Positions 4,736-53,272 are shown, counted from the stretch's first letter. The stretch: DNA of 64,000 nt from Octopus vulgaris (GCA_951406725.2 OX597819.1:32922001-32986000); one strand, 5' to 3'. Notes: generated by a model from the letters alone, not told the origin. Translations and numbers: made by a program.

Positions 4736-5626
4736 CGAGGTGATGTCAAAGCGTTTCAGGACTAGTACTGTAGCACACTAGCAGATGGCAGCACACGTTT
4801 ACGTGCGCTGTGAGAGCTAGCGGTGACCTTCGTGATGCAGTGTGCAGTGTTTACTTCGCAAGTTGAAAATTTTGTGTCTTGTGATCACGTGTATGTTGTA
4901 GTCTGCGATTTTTGTCATGGACAGGAAGTTAGGAAAAAAGGACCAGCGTGAGTGAAATGCTGCGTTAAACTTGGGAAGTCTACAACAGAGACATTGAGCA
5001 TGCTTCGGCAAGCTTAGGGCGACGAGACAATAGGCCATACACGCAATATTTCAAGTGGCACAGGCGCACCATAGAGCCGCAGCTCATTCAAGAACAAATT
5101 ATTCGTTGTTTTTGGCATCCGCAAGATTGTGCATCGAGAATTTGTCCCTCGGGGCTAGATCGCCAATCGCGAATTCTATTGCGACGTTTTGAAGCGTTTG
5201 AGGAAGGACATTCGGCGAAAGCGACCGGATCTGTGGAGTTGGATTCTTCATGATGACAATGCACCATGTCACGAACTCTCTTCACTCGTGAGTTTCTCGC
5301 CAAAAGCAACATGGTATCGCTTCCGCACCCGCTCTATTCACAAAGTTCAGCATCCGTGGTTTTCCATCTCATTTCCAAGATTAAACTGCAGCTCAAAGGT
5401 CGCTGTTTTAACACCATTGTCAAAATCAAGAGCGAATCACAGGAAGTTCTCGACTTGCTTACGGGAAACGACTTCCAGGCCGGATTCCAAAAGTGGCAGG
5501 AACGCTGGAGCCAGCCAGTGTATTCTTGCGCAAGATGACTATTTCGAAGGAGATTATATTAAAAATTAGGTAAGTTATTTTTTTAATTAAGCATAACTAG
5601 TCCGGGAACCTTTTGATACCACCTCG
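4736..5626 (+). mobile_element. Internally deleted mariner (DD34D-type) transposon
   Basis: TA-flanked imperfect TIRs CGAGGTGATGTCAAAGCGTTTCAGGACTAG / CTAGTCCGGGAACCTTTTGATACCACCTCG. Transposase remnants IRRKRPDLW..ILHDDNAPCH and LPHPLYS..FQKWQERW (ORFs 5189..5569, 5266..5538). Confidence 0.9.
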
Positions 5627-6590: not shown

Positions 6591-6780
6591 GTCTACTTAA
6601 CTGAATATTAGGCACAAGCTGACTACTGTAGCAGTTCCCTCTCCTAACTGTTATATTCGCGATGTCCCACTGCACTTAGGGTGAAAAGGCAGAAAGGGTA
6701 TCTACCTCTGCTCAAGACTTCATTGGTGGCTAAAACCAATGACGAAAGGATACTGTTTATTACCAAATAATACTCACTTT

Positions 6781-7234
6781 GGATCTTTTCGGTTTGAACG
6801 GCAGTTTTTTCTAGCGGTGTCATATGAAATTGCCACCCATAATTATGACCCTAGTATCGATCTATTGCATTTCAATCTGTTTTAGGGTTAGGGTTAGTTA
6901 GGGTTAGTTAGGGTTAGAGTTAGGGTTAGGGTTAGGGGTGGGAGGAGGGTATCTTTTTCTCTTCACAAATGTAAATAAACCCAATCTGTTTCTTAAACGA
7001 GGGACATATTCATACGGCACAGAATGTTATTTACCTCAATAGACGTCAGTGATTGGTTAAAATTGCAGAAATTGAAGGAAAAAAACAACAAATATCTTAC
7101 AAACTATAGAATTTTCTTAATAAAGCCAAGAGAAAAAGATGTTTTATAAACACATTCTACCAGTATACGAAGTTTAAAATTTTTTAGTTACCTAGAAATT
7201 ACGTTAAAAACTGCCGTTCAAATCGAAAAGATCC
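6781..7234 (-). mobile_element. Merlin-like MITE copy 2, with the longest (TTAGGG)n-like tract
   Basis: Same TIRs. Perfect 8-bp TSD ctcacttt. About 9 TTAGGG/TTAG/TTAGAG units at 6882-6938. Confidence 0.93.
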
Positions 7235-8315
7235 CTCACTTTAGAGACGGTTACACTCATTATGTGTGAATGTGTGTGTTTGTGTGTGCGTGCGTATGTG
7301 CGCGTGTGTGCGTGTGTATGCCTGTTTGAATTTATACACATAAAACTCTTAGTGATCCTGAAACTAGTTTGTAAAAGGTTAAACATATCTTGATGTTGTG
7401 CATGATATCGATGTCATTCATTAATGATTGCAGAGGAAGTGATCGTAAACTTTAGATTTTAAACTAGGTTTGAACCTACATTGCAATACACGCTACAAGA
7501 TCTAAGTGGATAGATTTTTATCAGACGAACACGTAAATAAGAAAATATTTCGTGTTGCATTGTGTCTGGCATACATTTTGCTTGTTAAGTTAAATGAATC
7601 TCATATAATGAGAAAAAAGAAGAGCGTGAAAAAGAGGAAAGTATTGAGACGTGGACACAAATAGATAGAAAACTAAAGAGAGAGAGTCAGAGAGAGGGGG
7701 AGAGTAAGTCAGAGAGAGAAATAAAATGAATGTAATCAGGGAGATAGATGAGAGAAAGAAGGGAGAAAGAAAGAATATTACATGAAGATTAATCGAATCG
7801 CTAATCTTTGAATGTGGTTCGTGAGTTTTATCGATGTGTACGTATATAGATATATAGATAGATAGATATGTGTGTGTGTGTAGAATTGAAAGAGAAACCG
7901 AGATGCTGCGAGACGACGGTGGGGGCAAGATGGTGCTTGGTTCATTGAAATGATGAAGGTGGATAGTGGTGATGTTGAGGGCGGGGGTGGGGTGGATAAG
8001 ATGGATGTGGTGCTAGGTTGAATAGTAGATACATCCAACACTATTATGAACATTTCCTTTTAAGTCTGTAAAACTAATGAAGTATTTATTTTTTTTCTTC
8101 GTTGCTATTCTTGTTGTTGTTGTCGTCGCTGATGATATTTTATTAATTCATTTGTTAGTTTGTTTTTTTTTATTGTTTTTTTTTTTTGTTTTGGCACCTT
8201 TTAATAACTTATTAATGACTTACAAATATAGAAATTTGGCTTTAACTCCTATAAGACGAGAGGAAGTTCATTAAATTCTTTACATCAACGAACCATGTAC
8301 ATTAACAAGTTCAAA

Positions 8316-8510
8316 GCGACGAGCTGGCAGAAATTTTAACCTGCCGAACACAATACTAAGCCTTAGGTTGCTTCGAGTCATTGTTGCTTCGAGTTCGACT
8401 TTGTATTTCATCCTTTCAGGGTCGATAAATAAATTACCACTCAAATACTTGAGTCGTTGAAATCGACTAACTCTCTCTCCGCCAAAATTTCAAGCCTTTT
8501 GCTTGTAACA
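8316..8510 (+). mobile_element. Degenerate tRNA-derived Nin-core SINE
   Basis: GAGCTGGCAGAA head and TTTCATCCTTTCAGGGTCGATAAA core. Confidence 0.7.
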
Positions 8511-8788
8511 GTTACCAACTTCAAGTTTTCGGTGTTTTGTTGTTTTTTCTTTTTATCAAGTATATCAGGTAGCGATTATTCTCAATTTCATTTCCTTGTA
8601 TATGTGTGTGAGTTTACATGTATACGTGTGCTTGTATGTGTTTACTTGTGTGTTTTGCAGTGATTGTCTCGTATTTTATCGTGATAACAGCGGGGAATCT
8701 TTTATCTTTTATATTTTACTTCCTTCAGTCATTGGACTGCGGCCATGCTAGGGTATAACCTGGAAGGTTGTACCCTACTTACTATTTT

Positions 8789-9227
8789 GGATCTTTTCGG
8801 TTTGAACGGCAGGTTTTAACATAATTTCTAGGTAACTAAAAAATTTTAAACTTCGTATACTGGTAGAATGTGTTTACAAAACATCTTTTTCTTTTGGCTT
8901 TATTGAGAAAATTCTATAGTTTGTAAGATATTTGTTATTTTTTTCTTCAATTTCTGCAATTTCAACCAATCAATGATGTCCATTGAGGTAAAAAAAACAT
9001 TCTGTGCCGTATGAATATGTCCCTCGTTTAAGAAACAGATTGGGTTTATTTACATTTGTGAACAAAAAAAGATACCCTTCCCCCCACCCCTATCCCTAAC
9101 CCTAACCCTAACTAGCCCTAACTCTAAAACAGATTGAAATGCAATAGATCGATACTAGGGTCATAATTATGGGTGACAATTTCATATGACACCGCTAGAA
9201 AAACTGCCGTTCAAACCGAAAAGATCC
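8789..9227 (+). mobile_element. Merlin-like MITE copy 3
   Basis: Same TIRs. Perfect TSD actatttt. (TAACCC)n-like tract at about 9088-9128. Lies next to a SINE 3' tail fragment (8700-8788). Confidence 0.93.
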
Positions 9228-10069
9228 ACTATTTTTAACAATAGACTAGGTAGCATTATAGCACAAAAAATACTATTGCAGAGAAAGTATTATGATGCAG
9301 AAAGTACTATTGTGCAGCCAGTATTATGGGACAGAAGATAATATAGCTCAGGAAATATTCTAAAGTAGAAAATGTTATTGTGTAGTAAGCACTAAAGCGT
9401 TACGACTCAGTTGTTCAATAAGAAAATAGTTATGCAATAATTAACTCCACACGTCTGTCTTTTAAACAATTTCCTGTCTCTATGGTTTAGAGAAACCCAA
9501 TCAAATACTTTCAAGTAACAATGATATGCCGCTCCATAAACCGTGTTAATCAGGTAACATAGTATTACTCTTTCAAACTGCCGGTTGTTGTTGTTATTGT
9601 TGTTTGCTCCCATGATAGAACAGAAAATTATTACAATCTGCAAATACGCATAATTTTTTCAGACTAAAATCACTTTTAAAGAAAGTAAGGTGAGATTTGA
9701 TCGTGATTTGGTTACTATTTGTAGGAGCATCATCATTGGTTATCGAGTGTTGTTTGAAAGACAATAGGACGTGATTTGAGTGACATAAGCCACTGTTTCC
9801 AAATAGTCAATCACTGTGTAATGAGATCAATTTCTATTATGGCACATCGAAGGCGATCAGCCTTTTATAGGCTCAGCGCATTAAGCTGTAATGATTGGCT
9901 GTCTTACCTAACACGTGAGCTTGGAACATTGATTGAGTTCTGTTCTTTGATTGGACGAGTACTGCGCGGGATATGGATCGAAGTTCCAGTCACGTTGCGC
10001 GTAATAAATCTTCAAACACTAATCTGAATGCGGGATGGAGCGTACCCTCCTTCTATAGACAGATCTAAG

Positions 10070-16249: not shown

Positions 16250-16336
<87 letters not shown>

Positions 16337-16341
<5 letters not shown>

Positions 16342-16482
16342 TCACTGACTGGAATTGAACTCGGAATCTTGGGGGTTAGTAGCCCACGCTCTTAGCCACT
16401 TTGCCATATGCCCGTGGCGTAGTGGTTAAGAATGTGTGCTACTAACCTCAAGATTCCGAGTTCGATTCCAGGCAGTGACCTA
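16337..16482. mobile_element. Back-to-back palindrome of two tRNA-like heads, flanked by (ATT)n and (AAT)n
   Basis: The right half GTGGCGTAGTGGTTAAG...GAGTTCGATTCC has an A box and a B box. The left half is its reverse complement. Confidence 0.8.
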
Positions 16483-16541
<59 letters not shown>

Positions 16542-16566
16542 TAATAATAATAATAAATTCAAAAAT

Positions 16567-16610
16567 ACACCTGATGAAAACTGGAAGGTATATTAGGCCA
16601 AACGTTGTGT
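16567..16610 (+). ncRNA. Minimal hammerhead-like motif (decayed) in composite element copy 1
   Basis: ACAC CTGATGA ...CTGG...TAGGCC AAAC GT T GTGT. Stem I is ACAC/GTGT with palindromic ACGT. G12 is lost and stem II is damaged. Confidence 0.55.
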
Positions 16611-17084
16611 TAACAACAAACAAGATGAGGACAAGTATCCGTCAAATGTAAATAACGTACATAATTCCTCATCTCTTAAATGTAATATTTAATACATACA
16701 CTTACATATTAATATTATACAGGTGCATATCTATAATATACACATCACTTTGGTTTCCATGATGTGTTGTCTAGGTGTATATGCAACTATTACTATTAGC
16801 CTTAACATAACTGTAAGGCATGAGCACTGCGAAAAGGTTGTTCCTGAATACTAAAGGTACAGTCTATCCAACGTGCTTTCCACATAGTTTACGTTTAACC
16901 AATTTCAGATACAAGGCTAAGGTCGGACGAAGTTGTGGTGTCTTGCTCAAGATATTGCGCAAGTGGGGATGAATCTCAATTCTCAAGATAATGAAAGAGA
17001 CTTTTCAGCTACTCGGCTGAGCTGGCATCTATATACCTATATATATATATATTTTATTTTTATATATATATATATCTATATATA

Positions 17085-26595: not shown

Positions 26596-26642
26596 TACAT
26601 TATTTACATTTAAAGGATATCTCCTCGTCTTGTTTATTGTTA

Positions 26643-26686
26643 ACCCAACGTTTCGGCTGATGTACTCTCCAGCATTCATCAGTTGC
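26643..26686 (-). ncRNA. Minimal hammerhead motif with intact core in composite element copy 2
   Basis: Minus strand reads GCAA CTGATGA AT GCTG-GAGAGTACAT-CAGC C GAAAC GT T GGGT. The core is canonical but stem I is mutated. Confidence 0.6.
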
Positions 26687-26752
26687 CCTGGAAAATTTCG
26701 AACCTGGGGGTCTCATTCCTAAGGTATTTTTCGATGATATTATGATGATGAT

Positions 26753-26795
<43 letters not shown>

Positions 26796-26815
26796 GCAGC
26801 AGCAGCAGCAGCAGC

Positions 26816-26923
<108 letters not shown>

Positions 26924-26932
26924 TATTATTAT

Positions 26933-27080
26933 TCAGATCACTGCCTCGAATCGAACTCGGAATCTTGGGGTTAGTAGCCCGCGCTCTTAACCACTACGCT
27001 ATATGCCCATGGGCGTAGTGGTTCAGAGCACGGACTACTAATCCCAAGGTTCCGACTTCGATTTCAAGCAGTGACCTGAA
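26933..27080. mobile_element. Second back-to-back tRNA-like palindrome
   Basis: Homologous to 16337..16482, with centre CCACTACGCTATATGCCCATGGGCGTAGTGG. Confidence 0.8.
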
Positions 27081-27098
27081 TAATAATAATAAAGTGCT

Positions 27099-27149
<51 letters not shown>

Positions 27150-27155
<6 letters not shown>

Positions 27156-27362
27156 CCTTTCTTCTATAGGCACTAGGCCTGGAATTTGTGGGGAGGGTAT
27201 AGTCAATTACATCGATCCCAGCAGCCAGCTTGTACTTATTGTATCTGAAAGAACGGAAAACAATGTCGACCTCGGTGGAATTTAAAATCAGAACATCAAG
27301 ACGGACGAAATGCCGCTAAGCACTTTGTCTGGCGTGCTAACGATTCTGCTAGCTCACCTCCT
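27150..27362 (-). mobile_element. Nin-core SINE
   Basis: Reverse-strand head, core and tail ending in (ATT)n. Confidence 0.75.
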
Positions 27363-28817
27363 TCGTATCTGTGTTACAGGGGCATAAACAATTAGGACAA
27401 TCGTAGTAGATTCGCCCAATCAGTAGAGCTCGGAAAAAAAAAACGCTTTGTTTAGCTCATCAGTTAGCCTTAATATGGTGCATAGCTAGGCAATTCACCT
27501 GATTGATTTAGTCATCAACACATTGTAATCATTGGCTTGCAGTCTAACTGTTTCATCTTTATACCTCATACTTCGCTGCCTCAATAAATTCCGTTCCTTT
27601 GAACTACCAACACCAAACCTACGTGAATAACTACTTCAGTAATATTTTTGCCTGCAAATTTCGGACAATCTTTCTACAAAACGTTATACTGCTTGTGTTC
27701 GGCCACGATGAAATGCGCTCTGATCTTATCATCTTGTTCTTCTTTCTAGGCACATTATCCAAACCTGCTATGTCTCGTAATATGGAACTATAACGTAGAG
27801 GATCGTCACATTTTTTCTCTCTTATAAGATCAACTAAAATATATTTAAACAATACCTCAATCTCCTGGGTAACCTTACAAAAGATAAAAATCCTGACACT
27901 TCTGGCTTTCATAGAATATAAAACAGAATTCATTCCTTTATATATTTTAAGTCCAGATTCGACCACGGTCCCACTTGCCCGTTCATTGCTTCACGTCTCG
28001 TCAATTGAGAACTAATTATAAAGGCTGATTAAGTGAACAGCTTTTCTCAAGTTTGTCATTCAAGTTACGAATCTATATTATTTGATTCATATTTAAATTT
28101 TTTGTTTATAATTTTATCTCGTTTGTTTATATTTCTGTCTCCTTTTTGTGTGCGTCTCTCCTCTTTCCTTTTTCTCTCTTTTCTCTTTCTCTTTCTCTCT
28201 CTCTCTGTCTCTGTCTCCCTCTCCCGCTTTCTCTTTCTCTCTCTATATATATGTGTCAATCGAACATTCACTTTGTGTATCACTTTCTTGTCTCTCCTGC
28301 TCTTTGCTATTATTTTCTTCCTTTAAAAACTACCTACAGCCTCTCCTCTTCTTCCTCCTCCTCCTCCTCCTCCTCCTCCTCCTCCTCCTCCTATCCTTCT
28401 ATGTTTTCTAGTCCAGCAATTTTATTATTCTTTTTTTTTTCCACTGATCTTGCTTATTTCACTTCTTTTGCTCGTGCTTGTTGTTCTTCCACCACCACCA
28501 CCACGACTACTACTACTACTACCACCACCACCACCACCACCACCATCATCATCATGAAAAAGAACATCAACAACAATCGACAACAATAACAGCTTAGTCC
28601 TCGTCAGCATCGTCTGCTGCGGTGACTTCTACAGTTTTCTCTTATCTAATTCATTCATAAGACGCTTTTTTTTCTCTCTCTTATCTATAAGTATCCTTCT
28701 TGCAGTCTTCATTTTTTTTTTTACTTCTATCTCTATCTCATACATTGTCTCTCTTTCTGTCCCTTTTTCCGATTACATAAATACTCTCTCTCTCTCTCAC
28801 GCTCTCTCTCTCTCCCG

Positions 28818-28855
<38 letters not shown>

Positions 28856-29539
28856 ATCACATAACACACATATGAAGAAAGAAAGAAAGAAAGAAAGAGC
28901 GAACGAAAGAAGGAGAGAAAAGTGGATAGGCAGGCATTATCCACAGCTAAATTTCAGTGAGTCGTCGGAACGTCTTTGAAGGTTTGTGAATTATGCATAG
29001 ATGAAAGCTTGTAGATTAATGCTTCCTTCTGTAAGCAGCCAGTAGATAGATGCCTACATTAATTCAACACAAAATCATTCAAAAATGCCGTCAATAATCA
29101 TCTGCTTCAAACAACCGTGCATTATTGAGTTCATCTTATACAGAAGAAAAGTTTTCAATCATTTCCGGCTGCTTGTTGCATATAAAATATTTTCAAAGAC
29201 GTCTTCCTTATGAATACACCACATCGAAAAATTGAACACTTGGATAGAAAATTACATAAATTGAAGGGAAAATAAATCAAACAAAAATGAGGCACTGTTG
29301 AAAGTGATTTAGCTACAGTAAATAAATCCTACATGTATGACATAACGGGTCTCTATCTCACCAACAAATCTAATAAAGATATAGACCGAGAAATCAAACC
29401 CAAATGGTTTTAGTAGAAATAATGGCTATGTAATAAATATAAGAAAAATCCCGCCTTTCCTCTGAACGTAAATATGTATCTACGCATTTATACATATACA
29501 TATATATATACATATATACATCACACACACACTCATATG

Positions 29540-29582
<43 letters not shown>

Positions 29583-29608
29583 GCATTCAAATATATGCAT
29601 ATGTATAT

Positions 29609-29657
<49 letters not shown>

Positions 29658-29683
29658 CATATATATATATATACATATATATA

Positions 29684-29755
<72 letters not shown>

Positions 29756-29962
29756 TATACATATGCACGCAGGCATAAACACAAGCAGACTGAGTCAGAG
29801 AGGCATTACTTAAAGTTTCGCTGGAGTCAGAAGGCAACACTTAATCATCCGTATGTTCGTTTCTGAGTTTTCTCACAGCCGCGACGCTTTATGCATGCTT
29901 TAACATTGTAATGCTTAATACAGAAAACCTCTACGAAACGTGTTGAGTGAACTTTTATTCTC

Positions 29963-30088
<126 letters not shown>

Positions 30089-30137
30089 TCATTTTTTGTT
30101 AGGTTCCTTCCTCTGTTTGGCTCCCTTTCTTTTTCTT

Positions 30138-30194
<57 letters not shown>

Positions 30195-30299
30195 TATCAA
30201 TAAGGGAAATGGAATTTAATTAAATTTAAAATATTCAATCAAAATTTACATTTCCAGTGGTCTAACGTGCAAAAATTTGTCAAAAAGACTATATAATTA

Positions 30300-30469
30300 A
30301 TTATACACATAAGGAATCTACACCTAGGGTGAAGATTCAGCGCATTAGAGAGCCACAAAACAATAGATAAGATTCGACAGGAACAAAAATTTCAAATCTT
30401 ATCCATTATTTTTGTGGCACTCTAATGCGCTGAATCTTCACCCTAGGTGTAGATTGCTTATGTGTATAA
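30300..30469. repeat. Long inverted repeat in a (TA)n-flanked module
   Basis: TTATACACATAAGGAATCTACACCTAGGGTGAAGATTCAGCGCATTAGAGAGCCACAAAA ... TTTTGTGGCACTCTAATGCGCTGAATCTTCACCCTAGGTGTAGATTGCTTATGTGTATAA. Confidence 0.92.
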
Positions 30470-30559
30470 TATATATATATATATATATATATACATACAT
30501 ACATACATACATACATACATACATAGATACATACATACATACATATATATATATATCAG

Positions 30560-30842
30560 GAGGTAGTAAGTTCGATTCCCAGGCCGAGCTGTGTTCTTGA
30601 GCAATACACTTCATTTCACGTTGCTCCAGTTCACTCAGCTGTAGAAATCAGTTACGGTATCACTGATGCCAAGCTGTATTGGCCTTTGCCTTTCCCCTGG
30701 ATAACATCGGTGGCGGGGAGAGGGGAGGCTAGTATGCACGGGCGACTGCTGATGTTCCAGAAACAACCTTGCCCAGAATTGTGCCTCGGAGGGGAACTTT
30801 ATAGGTGCAATCTCATGGTCACTCATGACCGAAGGAGATCTT
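30560..30842 (+). mobile_element. 5'-truncated tRNA-derived SINE (further family)
   Basis: B box AGTTCGATTCCC and CORE-like TGTGTTCTTGAGCAATACACTT. Flanked by microsatellites. Confidence 0.6.
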
Positions 30843-31349
30843 ATACACACACATGTATGTATGTATGTATGTATGTATGTATGTATGTATGTATGTATGT
30901 ATGTATGTATGTATGTATGTATGTATGTATGTAGAGCTGACAAAATATAATACCAGTCAAGTGCTTGTTTCGATTTAGTGTTTCCGTAAAATATCCTAGA
31001 ACTTTACATTTATGAATTTGTGTTGCATGAATGGAATAAGCAGAGCAAAAGCACACACGAAGATGAAAAGTGTTGCTGAGGAGGTCACAGATGTGTGACG
31101 AAAGATTTCCGGACAATGGACATGAGTTAGAATAAGAACAATAATAAATGAGCGGTGGACGAATATATAATGCGTGTGTTTATTTAACAAAACAAACCAA
31201 AAGAAAAATGACCATTCCGAAATACAACAATATCCTAGAATTATTATTCTGGAATTATAACTTCAGACACAAGACTTGAGCAGGCCAAACCGTTGTCCAC
31301 GGCATGTAATTTCTGTATAACTCACACGAGGTAGTATATTATTTGATGA

Positions 31350-31510
31350 AGACTCTTGGCTTATTTTGCTGGGTATGATGGAAAGTATCCACTGTCCACA
31401 ACCAGCAGACTACTGTGGCACTTGTTTACTGGTCATGTTTCAAGGTCCCTGCGAAGAATTCTTGCCGTTCCAAGCAATGCTGACTTTTATAGGTGTTCTA
31501 TCTTTACATT
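31350..31510 (-). pseudogene. 3' end of an RLE-type (R4/Dong-like) retrotransposon
   Basis: The minus strand encodes L*KSALLGTARILRRDLET*, the conserved QK..LLGTA.ILR C-terminus. Confidence 0.6.
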
Positions 31511-31583
31511 TGTACAAATCTTTCTTAGGGGTAAAATTTTCGTTTGAAATATTGACTTTTTTTAAATTACATTCACATACATA

Positions 31584-33020
31584 TTGAAAAGATGTCGAAG
31601 AGAACAGTTGGCTGTTCCCTTCTTCGAACACCCCCCCCCCCCCCGACACAAGAAAAAAATTGATTTGAACATTTCTCCAAACCGCCCATTTCGTGCCTTA
31701 AAAGGCAAACAAAATGTTTCGATGGAACGTGTCAGCACGTTCAACGTTCTAAATGAAAATGAAAACGAAAGTGTCACTTTTGACGTCATCGAAGATTTCC
31801 CTCCTCTTCTCTCCACCAGTGCTCCAGTACCGGGGAAGGACGGAAGAAAGAGCGTTGCAAAGAAAAGCGACAACGATGGCGTCACCTTTGACGTCAACGA
31901 AGATTTGCCTTCTCTTCCTTCCACCAGTGCTCCAGTACCGGAGAAAGAAGCAAAGAAAATGACCAGCAGCCACACCGACACCACCACCAGCAAACAACAC
32001 AACAAGCCATCGTAGCAATTTTGCCTCCGCTGCAAAAGAAAACTCGGAGGAAGTAAAAGTTACGATGGACCAAATAAAAAGCGCAAAGGAGTTGTTGAGA
32101 ACATAGGGAAACAGTGTTTTCCTCAATACACCTCAACAACTCATACATGACACAAACAAGAAGACGATATTTTACAAGGTTTTCGACAAGAAAAACAAAA
32201 GATTAATCAACGCAACACTCCAACAATTGGAAATAGTTCTGAAGCCCATATGGGGCAAAAAGAGCTATGTCACCAGAGGGAAGCGTTTCGGAACTGTGGA
32301 GGTTCGCTTCCCAACAGAGGAGGATGCAAGGGCGCATGCCATTTCGCCCTTGCAAAATGAAAATCTGTTCCTTGTTCCAACATACCTCGGGCGGAGGGTC
32401 CAAAAAATAAAAATCGACACAGTACCCCCCGATCTAAATATATCATGGCTGGTGGCGGCTGTCCTCTATGACATAGAGGACACTGCCACTATTCTAGATG
32501 TACGAAGAGTGAGGGAAAAAAACTGGTCAGGTATGGGAGTTCAACTGCTGGGAAAAATCCAGCAGGAAAACATTAATGCCATACCTGACTCGGTAAATTT
32601 GCCGGACGGAACCAGGCTGCACGTTGCTGTGGAGGGGTGAAAGCCAAAATGTTACCTCTGCAGCAGCGAAAGCCACCTAAAGTGGGACTGTCCCATTTAC
32701 AAAAAAAGAATGGAGGCAGAATGCAAGAAGCTGCAGCAGCAACAACAACATCAACAACAACAACAACAGAAACAACAACAGTAAGAAACACCAAAGGCTG
32801 CCACACCACCAACACCATTACCACCACCACGACGAACGACAACACCTCCAACCACCAAACCAACACCAACCCCAGCACCAAGAAAAACAACAACAACAAA
32901 AAAAGGAAGAAGAAGAATCACCGACACCGTCACCATCACCAACAGATACAGCAACACCACCGCTACCAGCAGAACCAACAATTTTTCGCCCTGCTGCTGA
33001 AGCGGACCCGACAGCCATCC
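31584..33020 (+). pseudogene. Tx1-like LINE ORF1 remnant (RRM-like region plus CCHC zinc knuckle)
   Basis: ORFs 31584..32015 and 32227..32640. Reading through the TGA at 32638 gives KPKCYLCSSESHLKWDCP (C-X2-C-X4-H-X4-C) at 32650-32691. Confidence 0.75.
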
Positions 33021-34579
33021 CCTTTCTGGATCAGGAGAGCTGCGGTGTTTCAGCGGCACTTTGCTCAACTGTTTGGGACGAGCGGTGCAACGAACAACGG
33101 TACAGACTTCGGTGTGTACCTGGACGGCCTACCGCAACTCTCGGACAGCGAGGCAGAGTGCTGCGAGGGACCGATATCTGCCTGGGAAGTGGAGGAAGCA
33201 ATGAAGAGTTGCACGAGAGGTAGATCGCCGGGTTTGGATGGTCTGCCCTACGAGCTTTACACTTCAATGCCAGACTTGTTTGCGGGCCTGTTGGCAAACG
33301 TTTACTGCAACTGGCAGCAAAACGGGAGAATTTCTGCTTTTGTCTGTCGAGGGGTGGTGGCTTTGCTAGAAAAGGACCCAAACAAAGGGGACATTATAAG
33401 GAATTTTCGGCCCATCACTCTGCTCAATGCAGAGTTGAAGATTTTGGCCAAGGTGCTAGCCAAGAGATTGGCGCTTGTCGTGGACAATCTGATTGGCAAG
33501 AAGCAGAGATGCGCCGTACCGACCAGGTCGACACATGACAACCTCCATCTCATGCGCTACATCATAGAGAGGGTGTGTAACGACGCTGGCGCGGGTGGGG
33601 CTTTTATCAATTTAGATCAGAGTAAAGCTTTCGATAGGGTCGACCATCGGTACTTGGCAGCTGTTCTCAAGGCAGCTGCTGTCAACGACCGCTGAACGGA
33701 GGCCTTGGCATGCCGTGGTTACTGATGCACAGACATGCGCTCAGGCTGCGACATCTCAAGCGTTTCCTAGACGGTGAACAAGTGTGGTCGTCTTTTGTCA
33801 GACGCGACTTTCCGCAGCTCGTCCCTTTGACAGAGCTGCAGACCTAGATCAAACGTAGACCGAGAAAGGGCGCTTGGCACTTTGAGTGCCGTCAAGCTCT
33901 CTCCACCCTCCGCCAGGCGGGCAATGCGATCGGTGTTAGTTCCACTCTAGCGTTCTATAGAGGGTTAATGGAGGAAAAATGCGACGACGTTCTCGGGGGA
34001 ACTCTAGGCGTTGATGATAACGAACTGAGCGGTCTATTCGGAAGGACTTTCGGGCCGGGGCCAATGGATAACTTTCAGAGGTCGCTCGTCTGGCAGTGCT
34101 ACCGAGGGGCTCTGCCTGTACGGGATAAACTCAACCGGCACCGAAGTGCCATCAGCCGGGCCTGCCCGAAGTGTTGCCAGGACGACGAAACCGTTCTGCA
34201 CGCACTCGTCCAGTGCCCGAGTATTGCTGAACTATGGGTTTATGTCGAACAGCTACTGTCACGTATAGGACGGATCCGGCTATCAGCTGAATCCACAGTG
34301 AAGATTGCCCCGCCGACCTCCTTTAACAAGGAGGGCAAGGCCGTTTTCCTGTACCTAGTGGCTGTGGCGAAAGAGGTTGTATGGTGGACACGTTTGAAAG
34401 GGCTAAAGTCAGACACTTTCCTCTTTGGTCAAGGCCTCATCAACTTTTTCAAGTTTCACTTGAAAAGGAAGATGAGGTTAGAGAGGAGAGTGCTGTCTGA
34501 TAGCAAGTTTTCTAAAAGGTGGGTGAATTGTGCAAGAATGGCCAGTGTAAATGGACCAATTCTCAGGTTTCGCCTGTGA
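33020..34579 (+). pseudogene. Tx1-like LINE ORF2, internally deleted (N-half of RT plus C-terminal zinc finger)
   Basis: SPGLDGLPYELY, NFRPITLLNAELKILAKVLAKRL and LDQSKAFDRVDHRYL, then a jump to CQRPLNGGLGMP and ALPVRDKL..CPKC..ETVLHALVQCP. No APE endonuclease domain and no YADD are visible. Confidence 0.9.
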
Positions 34580-47056: not shown

Positions 47057-47858
47057 AAGGTGGCGAGCTGGCAGAAACGTTAGCACACCGGGCGAAATGC
47101 GTAGCCGTATTTCGTCTGCCGTTACGTTCTGAGTTCAAATTCTGCCGAGGTCGACTTTGCCTTTCATCCTTTCGGGGTCGATAAATTAAGTACCAGTTAC
47201 GCACTGGGATCGATATAATCGACTTAATCAGTTTGTCTGTCCTTGTTTGTCCTCTCTGTGTTTAGCCCCTTGTGGGTAGTAAAGAAATAGGTATTTCGTC
47301 TGTCGTTACGTTCTGAGTTCAAATTCCGCCGAGGTCGACTTTGCCTTTCATCCTTTCGGGGTCGATAAATTAAGTACCAGTTATGCACTAGGATCGATAT
47401 AATCGACTTAATCAGTTTGTCTGTTCTTGTTTGTCCTCTCTGTGTTTGGCCCCTTGTGGGTAGTAAAGAAATAGGTATTTCGTCTGTCGCTACGTTCTGA
47501 GTTCAAATTCCGCCGAGGTCGACTTTGCCTTTCATCCTTTCGGGGTCGATAAATTAAGTACCAATTACGTACTGGGGTCGATGTAATCGATTTAATCCCT
47601 TTGTCTGTCCTTCTTTGTTCCCTCTATGTTAAGCCCCTTGTGGGCAATAAAGAAATAAGAATCATTAGCACGCCGGACGAAATGCTTAGCAGCTTTTCGT
47701 CCGTCTTTACATTCTGAATTCAAATCCCGCCGAGGTTGAGTTTGCCTTTTATTCTCTCGGGGTCGACAAAATAAGTACCTGTAGAGCACTGGGGTAGATG
47801 TAAACAATTTAACCTCACCCTTCAAATTGCTCGCATTGTGCCAAAATTTGAAATCAAT
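47057..47858 (+). mobile_element. Tandem array of Nin-core SINE units (184-bp period) followed by an older-tail copy
   Basis: Tails AAAGAAATA end at 47289, 47473 and 47657. The first two are followed by GGTATTTCGTCTG. Confidence 0.92.
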
Positions 47859-52229: not shown

Positions 52230-53272
52230 ATAATCCTCTCTACTAAAGGCACAAGGCCCGAAATTTTGTGCGAAAAGGACTAGTCGTTTACAACGATCCA
52301 GTGTTTCACTAATACTTAATTTATCGAGCCCGAAAGGATGAAAGACAAAGTCGACCGCGGTGGAATTTGAACTCAGACCGTAGCAATGGGCGAAATAAAG
52401 TTAAGCATTTCGTCCAGCGTGCTAACAATTCTGCCAGGCCACCGCCTTTAAAAACGAAGAAAAGAAGAAAAGAAAGAAGATATAATAATCCTTTCTACCA
52501 AAGGCACAAGGTCTGTAATTTTGGGTGAAGCAGCTAGACGATTACATCGACCCCAGTGTTTCACTGGTATTTCATTATCGATTCCGAGAGGATGACAGGC
52601 AAAGTCAATTCCACCGGGATTTGAAGTTGGAATGTAAGAACGGACAAAATACTGCTAAGCATTATTACCCGACGTTCTAACTATTCTTTTCTACTCTATG
52701 CACAAAGTCCTAAATTTGGTGGGTGGATGGGTGGGCCATACGATTAGATCGATCCCAGTACGCAACTGGTACTTAATTTATCGACCCCGAAAGGATGAAA
52801 GGCAAAGTCGACCTCGGAGGAATTTGAACTCAGAACGTAGCGGCAGACGAAATACCTATTTCTTTACTACCCACAAGGGGCTAAACACAGAGAGGACAAA
52901 CAAGGACAGGCAAACGGATTAAGTCGATTATATCGATCCCAGTACGCAACTGCTACTTAATTTATCACCCCGAAAGGATGAAAGGCAAAGTCGACCTCGG
53001 CGGAATTTGAACTCAGAACGTAGCGGCAGACGAAATACCTATTTCTTTACTACCCACAAGGGGCTAAATACAGAGAGAACAAACAAGGACAGACAAACGG
53101 ATTAAGTCGGTTACATCGACCCCAGTGCATAACTGGTACTTTATTTATCGACCCCGAAAGGATGAAAGGCAAAGTCGACCTCGGTGGAATTTGAACTCAG
53201 AACGTAACGGTAGACGAAATACCGCTAAGCATTTTGCCCGGCATGCTTAATGTTTCTGCCAGCTCGCCGCCC
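52230..53272 (-). mobile_element. Cluster and tandem array of Nin-core SINEs
   Basis: Five cores, with GACGAAATACC|TATTTCTTT junctions at 52856/52857 and 53039/53040. Confidence 0.9.

Follow-up and report, generated by a model that had tools for sequence, protein, structure and literature searches.

A tRNA-like head in the pLTR of an octopus Penelope-like element: a candidate internal Pol III promoter

Insertions of Penelope-like elements (PLEs) have been described as having an inverted arm, a tail on one side only and a target-site duplication (TSD) of about 10 bp (PMC3846280; bioRxiv 2021.04.23.441226; statements on these and the other cited sources refer to the parts of their text that were available). 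Frangieh et al. (PMC11167929) traced the tail to two start sites of reverse transcription (RT), with both strands nicked and extended. Pen2a of Adineta vaga (PMC3846280) and PAc of Anolis (PMC11167929) share with the octopus family reported here an RT with a C-terminal endonuclease, the first ORF codons within the pseudo-LTR (pLTR), a hammerhead that overlaps the ORF start, an inverted, 5'-truncated arm, a tail of 30–40 nt at one end, a TSD of about 10 bp and two RT starts; unlike them, the octopus family starts at a tRNA-like head in most of its copies and has an ORF without TTTT. Penelope/Poseidon pLTRs have been described with TATA/Inr-like (Pol II) elements, and a tRNA-like head is not mentioned in the accessible text of these descriptions. 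The minimal hammerheads of PLEs were reported by Cervera and de la Pena (2014; PMC4209133) to be weakly active, and only as multimers. The octopus motif itself is no different, since CUGANGAH, the G10.1-C11.1 pair, GAAAN, a palindromic 15.2-16.2, GUH, a short helix I and the expected need for a dimer all recur; what is unlike the hammerheads of that paper is the location of the predicted ribozyme, behind a Pol III-type head in the pLTR.

Other systems also bring together some of these parts. Sm-alpha and Sj-alpha of Schistosoma (PMC2770079, PMC6765202) are tRNA-derived, carry a hammerhead, are apparently transcribed by Pol III and reach a high copy number, but they are non-autonomous and tandem, with a canonical hammerhead (PMC4209133), whereas the octopus head lies within an autonomous PLE with head-to-head copies and a PLE tail. 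The TRIMp3 elements Helenus, Ajax and Cassandra (Kojima 2024, PMC10886601) have a small-RNA-derived Pol III promoter inside the terminal repeat, perhaps placed there by the insertion of a SINE; they differ in being non-autonomous LTR elements with PBS/PPT and TSDs of 4–5 bp, and the octopus family, with its TSD of 11–13 bp, inverted arms and PLE ORF, was not assigned to TRIMp3 (Helenus). Non-LTR retrozymes (PMC7229834; bioRxiv 10.64898/2026.07.22.740005) are also short, non-coding hammerhead repeats, thought to be derived from or dependent on PLE pLTRs, and differ in being arrayed in tandem, having canonical type I hammerheads and giving circular RNAs, whereas the octopus copies are mostly inverted pairs; neither a tRNA nor a promoter is mentioned in the accessible part of the second of these papers. 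Retrozyme membership was likewise rejected, as a second body on the same strand was seen by eye in about 4 of 86 loci and the hammerhead is minimal. With tRNA-derived SINEs, the family shares a head with A and B boxes, but it is not a separate LINE-moved family with a 3' simple-repeat or poly(A) tail, because its simple repeat is internal, its 3' end comes from the PLE itself and the sequence belongs to an autonomous element. Ohshima and Okada reportedly described, in 1994, the tRNA-derived octopus SINEs OK, OR1 and OR2, the last two from tRNA-Arg. OR2 is a CORE SINE (PMC4758252), and the short form of the present family may already have been named, for example among OK, OR1 and OR2.

The window, that is, the whole stretch of 64,000 nt of Octopus vulgaris DNA that was analysed, holds two damaged copies of the repeat. 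The palindrome of copy 1 (16336-16484) is, over 150 nt, 81% identical to its reverse complement (E 2e-35) and folds into a single hairpin (z = -19). Its left, inverted arm consists of an (AAT)n linker (16252..16337, minus strand), with the hammerhead part of the arm absent, and a complete tRNA-like head (16336..16413, minus strand; head positions 1-77, 91% identical to the family majority). At the inversion centre (16411..16419), CCC-GT is followed by a right head that lacks its first 7 nt, which is a deletion between short repeats. The right-arm head (16415..16484, plus strand; head positions 8-77) keeps its A box TGGCGTAGTGG and B box GTTCGATTC intact and leads, through an (AAT)n linker (16483..16556, plus strand), to the start of an ORF, the 5' part of which is carried in the pLTR (16559..16656, plus strand) and has lost its ATG by a 39-nt deletion. 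Within it lies a damaged minimal type I hammerhead motif (16566..16611, plus strand), with a hammerhead-like core at 16571-16606 and a predicted cut after 16606. The copy ends with the PLE "tail" extension (16657..16684, plus strand), which is found on a single arm in two-armed insertions.

Copy 2 is inverted (26596-27080), with an identity of 83% for its palindrome and 81% for its 3' part. The ORF start and pLTR body (26596..26736, minus strand; ATG 26716-26714) have a short, tail-less 3' end and include a hammerhead motif (26642..26687, minus strand) in which the CUGAUGA/GAAA core is intact while G10.1 is replaced by T and stem I is broken. These are joined by an expanded, mixed trinucleotide repeat as linker (26737..26931, minus strand) to a complete tRNA-like head (26932..27008, minus strand; 96% identical to the majority), followed by the inverted-arm head (27012..27080, plus strand; positions 9-77), whose B box is mutated, and by (AAT)n (27079..27155, plus strand), which adjoins the end of another repeat and again lacks the hammerhead part. 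In both copies, therefore, the inverted arm is a head plus (AAT)n without the hammerhead part, and in both there is a central deletion of 7–8 nt, on opposite arms. A target duplication was not seen by eye at either copy. The feature is read as a decayed inverted pair of Penelope/Poseidon-type fragments, and it is almost certain that these are PLE pLTR sequence.

The sequence-only reading had listed a palindrome, heads, (AAT)n, a hammerhead motif, a tail and an inverted second copy, and all of these are present in the window. The hammerhead of copy 1 stands only as a motif: its core is broken by a G12>C change at 16599, which turns GAAA into CAAA, and with the G10.1-C11.1 pair gone, stem II is broken too. 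Rfam scans of the window called neither a tRNA nor a hammerhead, and ARAGORN called no tRNA in the window or for the head; the motifs are too decayed or too minimal for these programs. The extent proposed for the unit was also too small, for the repeat is much longer and reaches 5' into an RT-endonuclease ORF.

One 25-mer taken from the unit's body has 8,832 exact matches in the source genome (G000, 2.8 Gb), compared with 0 for the reversed control, so the repeat is far beyond chance. The same 25-mer is exact in 20 of 61 independently picked arms and, among 42 two-armed loci, in both arms of 11; from the match count and the exact-match fraction among arms, the family is estimated at roughly 27,000–34,000 arms in about 20,000 loci. 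Divergence from the majority at non-CpG positions is 3.7% in the body (180 arms) and 4.5% in the head (98 arms), figures that are probably biased low by the way the loci were picked. The sample for the statistics consists of 86 loci, representing 97 of the first 100 listed matches of the body 25-mer, all on contig C1, and two of these loci, L197 and L198, form a 96% identical pair that is counted separately. The monomer comprises one 77-nt head, (AAT)n and a body of about 175 nt, and the order of the unit is the ORF stop, a 30-nt leader, the head, (AAT)n, the ORF start with the minimal hammerhead, and the tail. Across the 86 loci, a body on the same strand comes after 72 of 79 heads, which bears out, for co-occurrence and orientation, the earlier proposal of one mobile unit with the hammerhead part behind the head. 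An independent SINE with the same head was considered and rejected, since 27 of 29 loci picked by the head contain the body too. Family sequence is present in sequencing runs of five organisms, and none of the runs listed is recorded as RNA.

The leader and the coding sequence before some heads translate to a PLE RT with a C-terminal endonuclease. The head lies directly behind this ORF, on the same strand, in 22 of 29 loci picked by the RT DNA (query locus excluded) and in 24 of 30 loci found with a protein of other origin that is 59% identical, all 30 of these loci belonging to the family; the ORF-picked loci without a head in that place are truncated or deleted at the junction. On the other side, the stretch from the body ATG to the tail is an open frame continuous with the ORF (82 junction matches), and the pLTR body thus constitutes the first 53 or so codons of the PLE ORF. 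The majority ORF stays open for 783 further codons (at a depth of 4–60 copies), which makes a majority unit of about 2.7 kb with an ORF of about 830 codons; no intact PLE copy of the family was seen. One locus, L326, reads endonuclease, head, (AAT)n, body, ORF, head and body, and represents a partial tandem in which each pLTR has the head; a partial-tandem structure with the ORF start in the pLTR is also found at L261/L331. The suggestion of a Penelope-like RT as the mobiliser is upheld by the head adjoining the PLE ORF at most ORF-picked loci; the description of the unit as a non-autonomous retroelement is contradicted by the same loci and by L326, which show it to be the pLTR of an autonomous PLE.

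The RT gave RVT_1 matches at E 7e-5 and 2e-6, under the Pfam cut-off, and is 26% identical to the RT of a Neptune-like PLE (E 6e-33); a sequence search of the PDB returned weak RT matches only. A Pfam search of the family endonuclease gave no match. Its top clusters in the ESM Atlas scored 0.96, with GIY-YIG on 15–32% of their members, and the motif VYSIPCSCG..YKGET is present, so the C-terminal domain is put forward, with moderate support at the level of sequence, as a putative GIY-YIG endonuclease; an AlphaFold model of it was set aside (pLDDT 38). A Zn-finger within the linker that joins RT to endonuclease marks Neptune/Nematis, unlike Penelope/Poseidon (bioRxiv 2021.04.23.441226). The linker of the octopus family, compared by eye with the Cys-bearing Neptune-like linker of L091, has no Cys cluster, and the PLE was therefore provisionally assigned, by its linker, to the Penelope/Poseidon type.

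In that Neptune-like family, L091:406-4087 and similar copies in G000 represent a young PLE with many intact RT/GIY-YIG frames of 781 aa, an upstream frame of 359 aa, a pLTR dense in TGACGT/ATTGG words and an (AT)n end. These young PLEs, which were found by a Pfam GIY-YIG search of G000, were rejected as the partner of the present repeat, as the pLTR is not common to both. Relatives 59–69% identical across the endonuclease region are P0001-P0004, P0011, P0018 and P0021; relatives in viral or prokaryote contigs were not found. The called start of P0018 resembles the reverse strand of the hammerhead, hinting that it may have the same inverted-arm structure.

Bodies on both strands are found in 48 of the 86 loci, and every one of these two-armed loci is head-to-head. 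One of the arms terminates in (GTAAATAAT)n repeats, near body position 137-150, and its partner extends 27–36 nt further. The two-armed loci comprise 42 with a long and a short arm, 3 with two short arms, 1 with two long arms and 2 that are unclassified (42 of 46 classifiable, P 3e-9). A target duplication, defined as a direct repeat with at least 9 matching bases and mostly of 11–13, surrounds both arms in 28 of 44 loci compared with 1.7% of 1,892 mismatched pairs. The junctions between arms are spread all along the unit, are locus-specific and often show microhomology (67 junction matches genome-wide); no clear excess at the predicted cut site was visible by eye, and the junctions give no genomic evidence of cleavage. 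Among 43 loci, it is the tail-less arm that extends further 5' in 23, an outcome that plain snap-back copying would not yield, and the tailed arm in 14, with 6 ties; the arm biases are not significant (23:14, P 0.19; 8:2, P 0.11). The palindrome is thus very probably an integration product with the insertion pattern of PLEs. Because a tailed arm cannot be copied from a tail-less arm, twin priming is favoured over snap-back, unless later deletions are common. At one locus, L207, both arms stop at an identical base, after which a near-identical flank is inverted, and this is likely to be a snap-back product in which second-strand synthesis copied into the target. Family copies carry 1–5 repeats of the 9-nt unit GTAAATAAT at their 3' end (e.g., window 16648-16665), and tail-less arms end in varied phases of it; this variation in copy and phase suggests slippage on the template at the initiation of RT. 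A side observation concerns L017, L018 and L025, where an unrelated repeat of about 550 nt, itself ending in (AAT)n, is inserted within the (AAT)n linker, which suggests an element that targets AAT repeats.

The head majority has a perfect A box at position 8 and a perfect B box at 53. Against a profile built from G000 tRNAs it reaches 18.6 bits, with none of 500 shuffles exceeding 4.0, so that the earlier description of a tRNA-like head with Pol III boxes holds for the family. Its best match is tRNA-Arg among the 6 isotypes sampled. When the same profile was applied to the 3' regions of PLEs, none of 37 distant metagenomic regions was positive, compared with 4 of 4 of the family's own loci. 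The stops of 134 arms were found in the body (36), the linker (27), the head (22) and the head start (39), with 10 arms continuing; 39 of the 49 arms that reach the head start end there, a rate of 0.12 per nt compared with 0.004–0.005 elsewhere. This 5' boundary is sharp and lies 2–6 nt ahead of the head. A start 9–13 nt ahead of the A box fits transcription by Pol III. An endonuclease 25-mer about 110 nt upstream of the head has 539 matches in G000 compared with 8,832 for the body, and short copies outnumber endonuclease-bearing ones by about 16 to 1. In 73 leader-less junctions that are not fold-backs, the native leader is kept to -2..-4 and background is reached by -5, with AC/AT kept in 37 of the 73 (P 2e-11). 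Another cause of the stop could be a 5-bp hairpin of -5.4 kcal/mol that coincides with the boundary, and fold-back sequence is found at the native GCCC-AC-GGGC mini-palindrome in 31 of 104 leader-less full heads. L326 continues upstream of its own 5' head, from which it follows that some templates started further upstream. On this sequence evidence, a Pol III start at the head would be likely.

Pol III transcription of the whole element would be affected by runs of T, and the majority ORF, leader, head and body contain no TTTT at all. Compared with synonymous shuffles, the absence of T4 from the majority has P = 0.04, while that of T5 is not significant; G4 runs are absent too, again not significantly. 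Among single copies of the family of at least 1 kb, 29 of 48 are free of T4 (median 0 per kb), compared with 0 of 47 ORF stretches of other, metagenomic PLEs (median 3.5 per kb); a rank test overstates this contrast because the members of each group are related, and the comparison stretches, many of them from few metagenomes, are not independent. The 26 metagenomic stretches with at most 24% T have a median of 2.3 T4 per kb, and the Neptune-like ORF of 2.3 kb has 9 T4 runs. As for the tRNA genes of G000, a T run lies within 45 nt in 25 of 30 and is exactly T4 in 10 of those 25. A side observation at L162, L166, L169, L170, L155, L144 and L159 is that tRNA genes or pseudogenes are followed, past the T run, by the end of a GCGGTGCCCCAGCATGGCC-like repeat, which suggests an element that inserts beside tRNA genes.

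RNA-seq data came from 3 runs of one study on a related species (organism B), with 6% of each run read. Over L216:640-1300 there were 6,700–9,700 reads, with equal depth on both strands, and the depth over the body was about 5–6 times that over the endonuclease, similar to the genomic ratio. Neither read starts nor read ends piled up at the head or the cut site in these three fragmented runs. The RNA-seq neither supports nor refutes Pol III or cleavage.

The reading that we prefer, and consider somewhat more probable than all others together, is that of a PLE pLTR in which the tRNA-like head acts as an internal promoter from which Pol III transcribes the short copies as well as the full-length element. 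Whether Pol III would transcribe the whole ORF is, from the sequence, close to evenly balanced and slightly on the doubtful side; the full proposal, in which an autonomous protein-coding retrotransposon is run by Pol III after capturing a tRNA head and purging TTTT, and became the parent of its own SINE, is more tentative still. The proposal would begin with a tRNA(Arg)-like sequence that carried an (AAT)n tail and was captured behind one unit's stop codon, ahead of the start codon of the following unit, and the head might have arrived as an inserted tRNA-derived repeat, by analogy with what the accessible text says of TRIMp3 (PMC10886601). Pol III would initiate just upstream of the head and, in the absence of a terminator, read through the pLTR and the ORF. 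The PLE protein would bind the region of the ORF start in the RNA and nick the two target strands 11–13 nt apart, and reverse transcription would be primed at two sites 27–36 nt apart. The two cDNAs would then reach the 5' end of the RNA and be joined, through the self-complementary GCCC-AC-GGGC end or through microhomologies, to form the palindrome. The abundant short copies that resemble SINEs could stem from transcripts of the 3' pLTR. Cleavage by the hammerhead would require a dimer or the help of a protein, and the motif would be dead in the window copies.

The main competitor is a conventional PLE transcribed by Pol II, with a tRNA-like insert carried as a passenger in the pLTR, a reading that we consider unlikely, albeit the least unlikely of the alternatives. 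The excess of short copies would then reflect RT that halted or folded back on meeting the GCCC-AC-GGGC hairpin or the tRNA-like fold, and the absence of TTTT would reflect codon bias. The hairpin does sit at the boundary, the fold-backs in 31 of 104 leader-less full heads are as expected from it, and L207 resembles a true snap-back; yet a similar hairpin in the body (-3.5 kcal/mol) has no boundary, and a leader preserved as far as -2..-4 and down to background by -5 is what the end of an RNA would give. In its favour are also two words upstream of the head, one TATAA-like (36 nt away) and one initiator-like, TCACT (21 nt away); TCACT is the initiator-like word named for Adineta Pen2a (PMC3846280). 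The synonymous-shuffle P of just 0.04 leaves room for codon bias, but none of the 47 other PLE stretches is free of T4, and the majority A and B boxes are perfect.

Two further alternatives keep Pol III and shift the unit that propagates. The short copies could be a separate non-autonomous, SINE-like family made of head, linker and PLE 3' end, with its own Pol III-driven masters mobilised in trans, and the ORF-linked heads would be secondary chimaeras. The ratio of about 16 to 1 over endonuclease-bearing copies speaks for this, as does the retention of both boxes in short copies, which could act as masters. In most ORF-picked loci, however, the head stands behind the ORF with one and the same junction, both pLTRs of L326 contain it, and short and long copies have a common leader end and similar divergence, so this reading is very unlikely, although secondary short-copy masters are possible. 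The sequence-only reading had proposed that the back-to-back heads may be a bidirectional promoter. A two-headed palindrome as the propagating unit, with a functional bidirectional Pol III promoter, would account for both window copies being two-headed with a similar central deletion of 7–8 nt, and in the 16 of 86 loci that have heads on both strands, the heads face into their own arms and divergent transcription is possible. But the second head is absent from the other 70 loci, the junctions vary by locus and lie all along the unit (the 67 genome-wide matches), the window deletions are on opposite arms and the TSD surrounds both arms, all of which largely refutes this idea and makes it the least probable of those considered, with hardly any chance of being right. 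The pLTR with an internal promoter, carried by an autonomous PLE, remains the preferred reading.

The hammerhead of the family majority has a stem I of 5 bp, CUGAUGA with one extra A, and a stem II of 5 bp closed by G10.1-C11.1, and continues with GAAAC, GU and U17. The majority motif agrees with the published consensus of minimal hammerheads whereas copy 1 of the window does not; the identification of a minimal PLE-type hammerhead, with CUGAUGA/GAAA and stem pairing, was thus correct at the level of the family. All 11 core bases are kept in 108 of 180 arms, and the core is no better conserved than its neighbours (0.964 vs 0.959); no compensatory stem changes occur among 15 aligned family copies. 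Such a pattern is expected for the dead copies of one burst. The same hammerhead layout with different stem sequences is found in 7 of 37 distant PLE 3' regions. The two motifs of a palindromic copy occupy opposite strands and so cannot form a dimer in cis, for which a tandem copy is required; tandem copies with motifs on the same strand exist among a set of 30 loci. A second, vestigial hammerhead upstream (a GAACC/GGTTC hairpin then GAAA) was rejected because it lacks the CUGA core. At L323, L303 and L309, internally deleted tandems have two hammerheads each on the same strand, while L311:880-1737 consists of three head-to-tail units of about 215 nt (the hammerhead body plus 81 nt of ORF) that are headless; this array is retrozyme-like and derived from the family PLE.

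The pLTRs of PLEs, minimal hammerheads and inverted insertions were already known, and what appears to be new is a tRNA-type head in the pLTR of an autonomous PLE together with a T4-free ORF. Among the titles and abstract openings searched, and in the accessible text of the cited papers, no PLE with a tRNA-type head was described; Repbase, Dfam or SINEBase may already contain this family. The word "ribozyme" is absent from the main text of a 2026 paper on O. vulgaris repeats, so far as this text was accessible. About 20,000 loci with a tailed and a tail-less arm inside one TSD give genomic support to the two RT starts seen in vitro with the anole PLE. Annotation is likely to list the copies of this family among SINEs, MITEs or tRNA pseudogenes even though they are PLE ends. 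The R2 element is co-transcribed by Pol I. If the present proposal is true, the octopus family would be a Pol III counterpart of R2 and a genome-scale record of twin priming by a PLE RT. If Pol III is indeed responsible, a tRNA promoter can drive a long retrotransposon ORF, which would be new for a protein-coding retrotransposon, and a question would be how an uncapped RNA with a ribozyme in its start region gets translated. It would also offer a route for the birth of SINEs, in which an autonomous element gains a tRNA head in its terminal repeat and the 3' repeat then spreads on its own.

Several other repeats occur in the window. Head-to-tail trimers of a SINE-like unit of about 184 nt, 93% alike, lie at 47107-47657 and 52741-53223, and a copy that appears related by eye (~27157-27345) adjoins the inverted arm of copy 2. 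A broken LINE on the plus strand (32107-34579), with an RVT_1 match at E 2e-12, presumably resembles L1/Tx1, and a frame at 5159-5569 (plus strand) is taken to be like a fragment of a mariner transposase. Short interstitial runs of TTAGGG/CCCTAA are found at 6882-6937, 1763-1794 and 9096-9127.
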